Below are positions 30,822 to 30,839 of a stretch of 64,000 bases of DNA, piece by piece. How positions within the stretch are numbered: position 1 is the stretch's first letter; every line of letters starts with the position of its first letter. The notes beneath the pieces are model-generated. The model was given only the letters and a program-made list of their open reading frames with translations, had not been told where the DNA came from and searched no databases. A program made the translations under genes and the position numbers. The stretch comes from Escherichia coli (GTDB lineage Bacteria; Pseudomonadota; Gammaproteobacteria; Enterobacterales; Enterobacteriaceae), in the NCBI RefSeq assembly GCF_003334335.1, contig NZ_QOWQ01000030.1. The stretch is one strand, 5' to 3'.

Positions 30822-30839
30822 ATCCTACAGGCGTAAGAA
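30822..30839. promoter_or_regulatory. EvgA-box-like inverted repeat in the evgA-emrK divergent region
   Basis: atcctaca-gg-cgtaagaa matches the recalled consensus at 16 of 18 positions; lies between the divergent evgA and emrK genes. Confidence 0.5.

Follow-up and report, generated by a model that had tools for sequence, protein, structure and literature searches.

The 64,000-nucleotide stretch of Escherichia coli DNA analyzed here (the window) contains the genes of a two-component regulatory system and of an efflux pump, transcribed away from each other from a single intergenic spacer. On the minus strand lie evgS (26385-29978), which encodes the sensor kinase, and evgA (29983-30597), which encodes the response regulator. 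On the plus strand lie emrK (31013-32176), which starts with GTG, and emrY (32176-33714), which together form an efflux-pump operon. EvgA scores 437.9 bits with the NCBIfam equivalog NF007419 (cutoff, 251) and EvgS 2882 bits with NF007420 (cutoff, 1995), and the products of the plus-strand genes are an EmrA/EmrK-family adaptor and a DHA2-family permease. The RefSeq annotation of an identical E. coli stretch names the same four genes evgS, evgA, emrK, and emrY, with yfdX, frc, oxc, yfdV, and yfdE adjoining. The spacer extends for 415 bp from the evgA ATG (30597, minus strand) to the emrK GTG (31013, plus strand) and is AT-rich, with 34% G+C. It is identical at 415/415 positions to that of E. 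coli K-12 MG1655, whose coordinates are obtained by subtracting the window coordinate from 2514352. The RefSeq record NC_000913.3 carries no promoter or binding-site features for the evgA-emrK region.

Positions 30822-30839 of this spacer (plus strand; MG1655 2483513-2483530) read ATCCTACAGGCGTAAGAA. The sequence divides into a promoter-distal half-site, ATCCTACA (30822-30829), a GG spacer (30830-30831), and a promoter-proximal half-site, CGTAAGAA (30832-30839), all on the plus strand. The motif bound by EvgA is said to have been defined by Masuda and Church in 2003 as the 18-bp inverted repeat TTCYTACA-NN-TGTARGAA; none of the papers searched in full text prints this consensus. An independent check on sister sites corroborates it at five of them, those of yfdX and frc, which also lie in the window, and those of safA, ydeP, and yegR in MG1655. 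Compared with TTCYTACANNTGTARGAA, the emrK box departs at two positions, with A instead of T at 30822 and C instead of T at 30832. It agrees with the degenerate consensus at 14/16 specified positions, or at 16/18 if both N bases of the spacer are counted. The original prediction had given the same sequence for these positions and a match of 16 in 18, and both are confirmed on direct reading, the latter with the two N positions included in the count. No second full box exists in the 415-bp spacer, even with five mismatches allowed. A third half-site, TTCTTACT (30813-30820), directly adjoins the box and was considered as part of a longer operator. It is confined to the K-12-like lineage, in which base 30817 is T; all other aligned lineages carry C there, and this half-site was therefore set aside as a probable chance occurrence.

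Sites of this quality are expected to be rare in a spacer of this size. From base composition, 3.9e-4 sites with at most two mismatches are expected per 415-bp spacer and 0.063 per 64 kb, whereas about 4.6 are expected per 4.6-Mb genome. The window holds four sites with at most three mismatches, against 0.61 expected from shuffled sequences. The three sites with at most two mismatches all precede genes for which induction by EvgA has been reported, namely yfdX, frc, and emrK. The box upstream of yfdX (19797-19814, plus strand; TTCCTACAATTGTAAGAC) has one mismatch, and the box upstream of frc (20829-20846, plus strand; TTCTTACAGTTGTAAGAA) is a perfect palindrome. In MG1655, the motif is also found upstream of safA (one mismatch), ydeP (two mismatches), and yegR (one mismatch). 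Both safA and ydeP are described as direct EvgA targets (PMC9496106; PMC8174306). Every gene known to be under direct EvgA control is reported to have an EvgA binding site, and emrKY and frc have already been named as EvgA-regulated (PMC4283999).

The boxes of ydeP, safA-ydeO, yegR, yfdX, and frc share with that of emrK the same 18-bp inverted repeat with a 2-bp spacer, and the distance from box to start codon is 173 bp at emrK compared with 106-251 bp at the other targets. Within this set, the emrK and ydeP boxes are the two weakest, with two mismatches each. No other box of the set has a mismatch within the TGTA core, as the emrK box does with its C at 30832, and no other is situated between the operon of the regulator itself and a target operon. 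The yfdX promoter carries two boxes 38 bp apart (19797-19852), one strong and one weak; the weaker box (19835-19852; TAACTACAACTGTAAGAT) has three mismatches.

The emrK box is also well conserved. Of 5426 complete E. coli genomes, 5399 contain the whole spacer and 5398 contain a 49-bp block centered on the region of the box (30818-30866). Among the 5418 records that match this 49-bp block, 3763 are identical, 1654 are at 95-99% identity, and one is at 90-95%. The box is unchanged in 7/7 E. coli spacers that were read, and strain N96, the most divergent E. coli listed, has the K-12 box without alteration. An alignment of eight lineages was assembled from the window, five further E. coli lineages, and two divergent copies. 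In this alignment, the box has 14/18 invariant columns, whereas an 18-bp window has 10 on average. The CCTACA and GTAAGAA cores do not vary among the eight lineages, the free spacer bases alternate between GG, TG, and CG, and changes in the box are confined to positions 1, 2, and 11 and to the spacer. The longest invariant run of the whole intergenic region, GTAAGAATTGTATT (30833-30846, plus strand), takes in the proximal half-site and 7 bp beyond it towards emrK.

The two divergent copies also carry the box. A divergent Escherichia lineage labelled E. coli SCPM-O-B-8794, with an EvgA 98% identical and a spacer 86% identical to those of the window, carries a perfect palindrome, TTCCTACAGGTGTAAGAA (positions 2260-2277 of locus L002). 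Yersinia vastinensis IP38594 (NZ_CACVAF010000001.1, a 590-kb contig) possesses an emrK-evgA-evgS cluster, with an EvgA 94% identical to that of E. coli and a spacer about 65% identical; its box, TGCCTACACGTGTAAGAA (positions 2288-2305 of locus L003), has one mismatch. According to a 2022 review, EvgS/EvgA are restricted to E. coli and Shigella (PMC9496106), and the Yersinia cluster therefore looks like the product of horizontal transfer. More distant EvgA relatives, at 66-71% identity, from Hafnia, Klebsiella, Enterobacter, and Buttiauxella (L004-L006 and L008) have no box with three or fewer mismatches in the loci retrieved, and so lent no further power to the footprinting.

In E. coli NCTC10444 (L087, locus 1680-2800), the spacer continues for 179 bp from the evgA side and is then interrupted by an IS1 element. 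This strain has lost the EvgA box, with none present within the locus, and emrK is not annotated in the 1.1 kb retrieved beyond IS1, where a fimbrial gene begins. Since evgAS is still present, this strain is a natural variant without the box. In the E. coli genome search, twenty copies of the spacer between evgA and emrK came from records classed as plasmids. A 398-bp contig labelled Rhizobium cauense (L007) encodes 114 residues 100% identical to E. coli EvgA, and is almost certainly a contaminant of that assembly.

The sequences downstream of the boxes point to a shared promoter geometry. When the 60 nt after each box are lined up, emrK, safA, ydeP, and yegR have a -10-like hexamer at nt 21-26, followed by CYT. 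Nucleotides 21-29 read TTTAGTCCT at emrK, ACCAGTCCT at safA, CAGAGTCTT at ydeP, and TATAATCCT at yegR. The emrK element (30860-30868, plus strand), in which the hexamer is followed by CCT, would belong to the EvgA-dependent emrK promoter. When all offsets are compared, the best match is that of the six columns at nt 24-29, with a shuffle P = 0.0006 for emrK, safA, and yegR, taken as three independent promoters. ydeP was left out of this test because its promoter looks paralogous to that of safA. Divergent lineages keep the -10-like element, which reads TTTAATCTT and CATTGTCTT there and TTCAGTCCT in strain N96. The proposed emrK -10, TTTAGT, lacks the usual A at the second position. The downstream element common to these four promoters is absent from yfdX and frc, so the geometry fails for some EvgA promoters.

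Two further features of these promoters were observed in passing. In MG1655, the safA and ydeP promoters (6012-6071 and 8671-8730 of L089) are nearly the same after the box (..TCCGC.CA...TGAAGC...AGTCYTATTT), which suggests that they are copies of a duplicated promoter module. At yfdX and frc, CTCTCTGATT is found at nt 23-32 after both the weak yfdX box and the perfect frc box (window 20829-20878 for frc), and represents a second shared promoter design, unlike that of emrK, safA, ydeP, and yegR.

The boxes also have a common orientation. Read towards the gene, CCTACA is distal and GTAAGAA proximal at emrK, safA, and ydeP. The yfdX box has the same pattern save for the last base (GTAAGAC), and the yegR box, with GTAGGAA as its proximal half, is close to symmetric. 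The emrK box fits this orientation only when it is read towards emrK.

A -10 element at the observed distance would place the emrK start at about 30872 (MG1655 about 2483480). The box would then extend from -50 to -33 with its center at about -41.5, where class II activators classically bind. Another, constitutive emrK promoter, TTGATA-17-TTTCAT, was proposed from genomic SELEX (PMC3946193); it maps to 30944-30972, with the box about 150 bp upstream of it. A generic sigma-70 scan of the spacer identified one promoter-like site (30736-30765, plus strand), fewer than in shuffled sequences; this result is uninformative, as it should be if the promoter depends on an activator. Folding showed no notable RNA structure in the predicted emrK leader (30872-31030; z-score 0.08), and a terminator-like hairpin at 30924-30938 was dropped.

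Taken together with published work, these observations make it very probable that the box is the EvgA operator already known from the emrKY promoter of E. coli K-12, at which EvgA would act by class II activation, mainly or only on emrKY. As cited in later papers (PMC9496106; PMC8174306; PMC5706723), Kato et al. (2000) reported both binding of EvgA to the emrKY promoter region and its direct regulation by EvgA. Expression of emrKY depends on EvgA (PMC6393483; PMC5706723; PMC8174306), and the induction of emrK reporters is lost in an evgA deletion strain (PMC6393483). Activation of emrKY from this box is well supported, both by this literature and by the geometry common to safA, ydeP, and yegR. 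The locus combines the motif, the cognate EvgA and EvgS, an EvgA-dependent target, conservation, and a shared promoter geometry, as would befit an EvgA operator. Sequence, statistics, conservation, and literature all favor the assignment of an EvgA box in the divergent evgA-emrK region, as originally predicted. The emrKY operator was described more than 20 years ago, and the site is ordinary rather than new.

Activation would proceed through a short series of steps. EvgS would phosphorylate EvgA, a response regulator of the NarL/FixJ type, for example at mildly acidic pH. A dimer of EvgA would bind the two inverted 8-bp half-sites, whose center-to-center distance of 10 bp puts both on the same face of the helix. 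The weak -10-like TTTAGT follows 20 bp after the end of the box, and with its center near -41.5 the box would lie over the position of the missing -35 element. As a class II activator, EvgA would there recruit or activate sigma-70 RNA polymerase, and the emrK transcript would start near 30872, leaving a leader of about 141 nt before emrK.

This arrangement can be compared with those of related regulators. BvgAS is the closest homologue of EvgAS, and the sites of BvgA and the 7-2-7 sites of NarL are inverted-repeat operators of NarL/FixJ-family proteins. EvgA carries a LuxR-type helix-turn-helix domain. By analogy with BvgA and NarL sites, a dimer would be expected to occupy an inverted repeat with 2 bp between its half-sites, at or close to the -35 position; the half-site sequence of the emrK box is nevertheless different from theirs. 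BvgA promoters typically contain arrays of one strong and several weak sites, whereas the emrK spacer contains one box only. The yfdX promoter, with its pair of boxes, is nearer to the BvgA array pattern than emrK is.

The original prediction went further and assigned the box a double role as one shared operator, from which EvgA would both activate emrKY and autoregulate evgAS. The layout does resemble that of divergent promoters with a shared operator, as evgA and emrK diverge from one 415-bp spacer with a single palindromic site, the only full box present. PMC5573083 credits Tanabe 1998 and Kato 2000 with showing that EvgA, bound upstream of evgAS, regulates both evgAS and emrKY. Later literature, however, has the regulator operon evgAS not autoregulated. 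A study from the same laboratory as the early work found that EvgS levels stay constant, and refers to Eguchi 2003 for the suggestion that evgAS lacks autoregulation (PMC8174306). In Shigella within macrophages, evgA mRNA was not significantly changed, whereas emrK was strongly induced in an EvgA-dependent manner (PMC6393483).

The position of the box relative to evgA also argues against a shared operator. The SELEX study lists for evgAS a constitutive promoter, TTGACA-N20-TATATG (PMC3946193), which by computed coordinates runs from 30756 to 30725 on the minus strand. The annotated 5' end of the 124-nt evgA leader is at 30721, also on the minus strand (PMC11052181, Tables S4 and S5). Unlike the operator of a typical shared-operator promoter, the box is placed asymmetrically, with its center at about -41.5 from the predicted emrK start and at -109.5 from the annotated evgA start, and its orientation matches that of other EvgA targets only towards emrK. 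A distance of about 110 bp exceeds the usual reach of class I or class II sigma-70 activators. Provided that 30721 is the only evgA start, the box is thus too far from the evgA promoter to activate or repress it; a second promoter was, however, reportedly described by Tanabe 1998.

On the evgA side of the box, ACTATA (30803-30808) is invariant in 8/8 aligned lineages. On the minus strand it reads TATAGT (30808 to 30803) and could be a second -10 element for evgA. As an EvgA-dependent second evgA promoter it was rejected, however, because the box center would then fall at about -34.5, a position at odds with the geometry that other EvgA promoters share.

Given the distance, the orientation, and the conflicting literature, the two halves of the shared-operator proposal are therefore of unequal standing. 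The activation of emrKY is well supported, autoregulation of evgAS from the emrK box is doubtful, and the proposal that a single operator performs both functions is rather unlikely. A 9-codon leader ORF, MLHCKGNNL (30594-30623, minus strand), annotated in MG1655 as evgL (b4781), overlaps the evgA start codon, and CsrA sites have been reported in the evgA leader (PMC11052181). For these reasons, post-transcriptional control of evgA appears more likely than autoregulation.

It is very improbable that the conserved block serves mainly another regulator, for example a different NarL/FixJ-family protein or a nucleoid protein such as H-NS, with EvgA acting elsewhere or indirectly. Such a role would be in keeping with the AT-richness of the spacer, with its marking as H-NS-associated in a genomic SELEX table (PMC3946193), and with the conservation that runs 7 bp past the box as TTGTATT, which the EvgA motif does not explain. 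Yet within the box the conserved bases are exactly the positions that the EvgA motif specifies, while the free spacer bases vary, and five further copies of the motif each precede a gene that EvgA induces. Silencing by H-NS that is relieved by EvgA would, moreover, add to the main explanation instead of replacing it; that EvgA may also counter silencing at emrKY is a speculation. Finally, a chance resemblance without function is extremely improbable: although the box is off consensus at two positions and several such sites are expected per genome, next to none is expected in this spacer, the box and its adjoining bases are the best-conserved part of the spacer in lineages with 65-86% spacer identity, divergent lineages shift towards the consensus and not away from it, and direct EvgA binding to the emrKY promoter region has been published (Kato 2000, as cited above).

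The A at position 1 and the C at position 11 of the emrK box are unchanged in the 7/7 E. coli spacers read, whereas position 11 is T in the Yersinia vastinensis copy and the box of the sister Escherichia lineage is perfect. One tentative proposal, on balance improbable, is that the emrK box of E. coli has been deliberately weakened, which would make emrKY a high-threshold, late member of the EvgA regulon, and that the -10-like hexamer plus CYT at nt 21-29 after the box is an undescribed class II signature. The fixed-distance signature common to four EvgA promoters may be new, as may the observation that the two off-consensus bases are constant in the E. coli spacers read while sister lineages are at or closer to the consensus.

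The additions made here to an established operator are modest. They comprise a confirmation by statistics and conservation, a predicted transcription start, a class II geometry, and a sequence-based doubt about the autoregulation of evgAS. The emrK promoter is the standard reporter for EvgS activity. If true, the -10 plus CYT signature could separate functional EvgA boxes from chance ones. More broadly, the emrK box connects the sensing of acid by EvgS/EvgA with the efflux of multiple drugs and bile salts, and the emrKY pump also aids the survival of Shigella in macrophages (PMC6393483).
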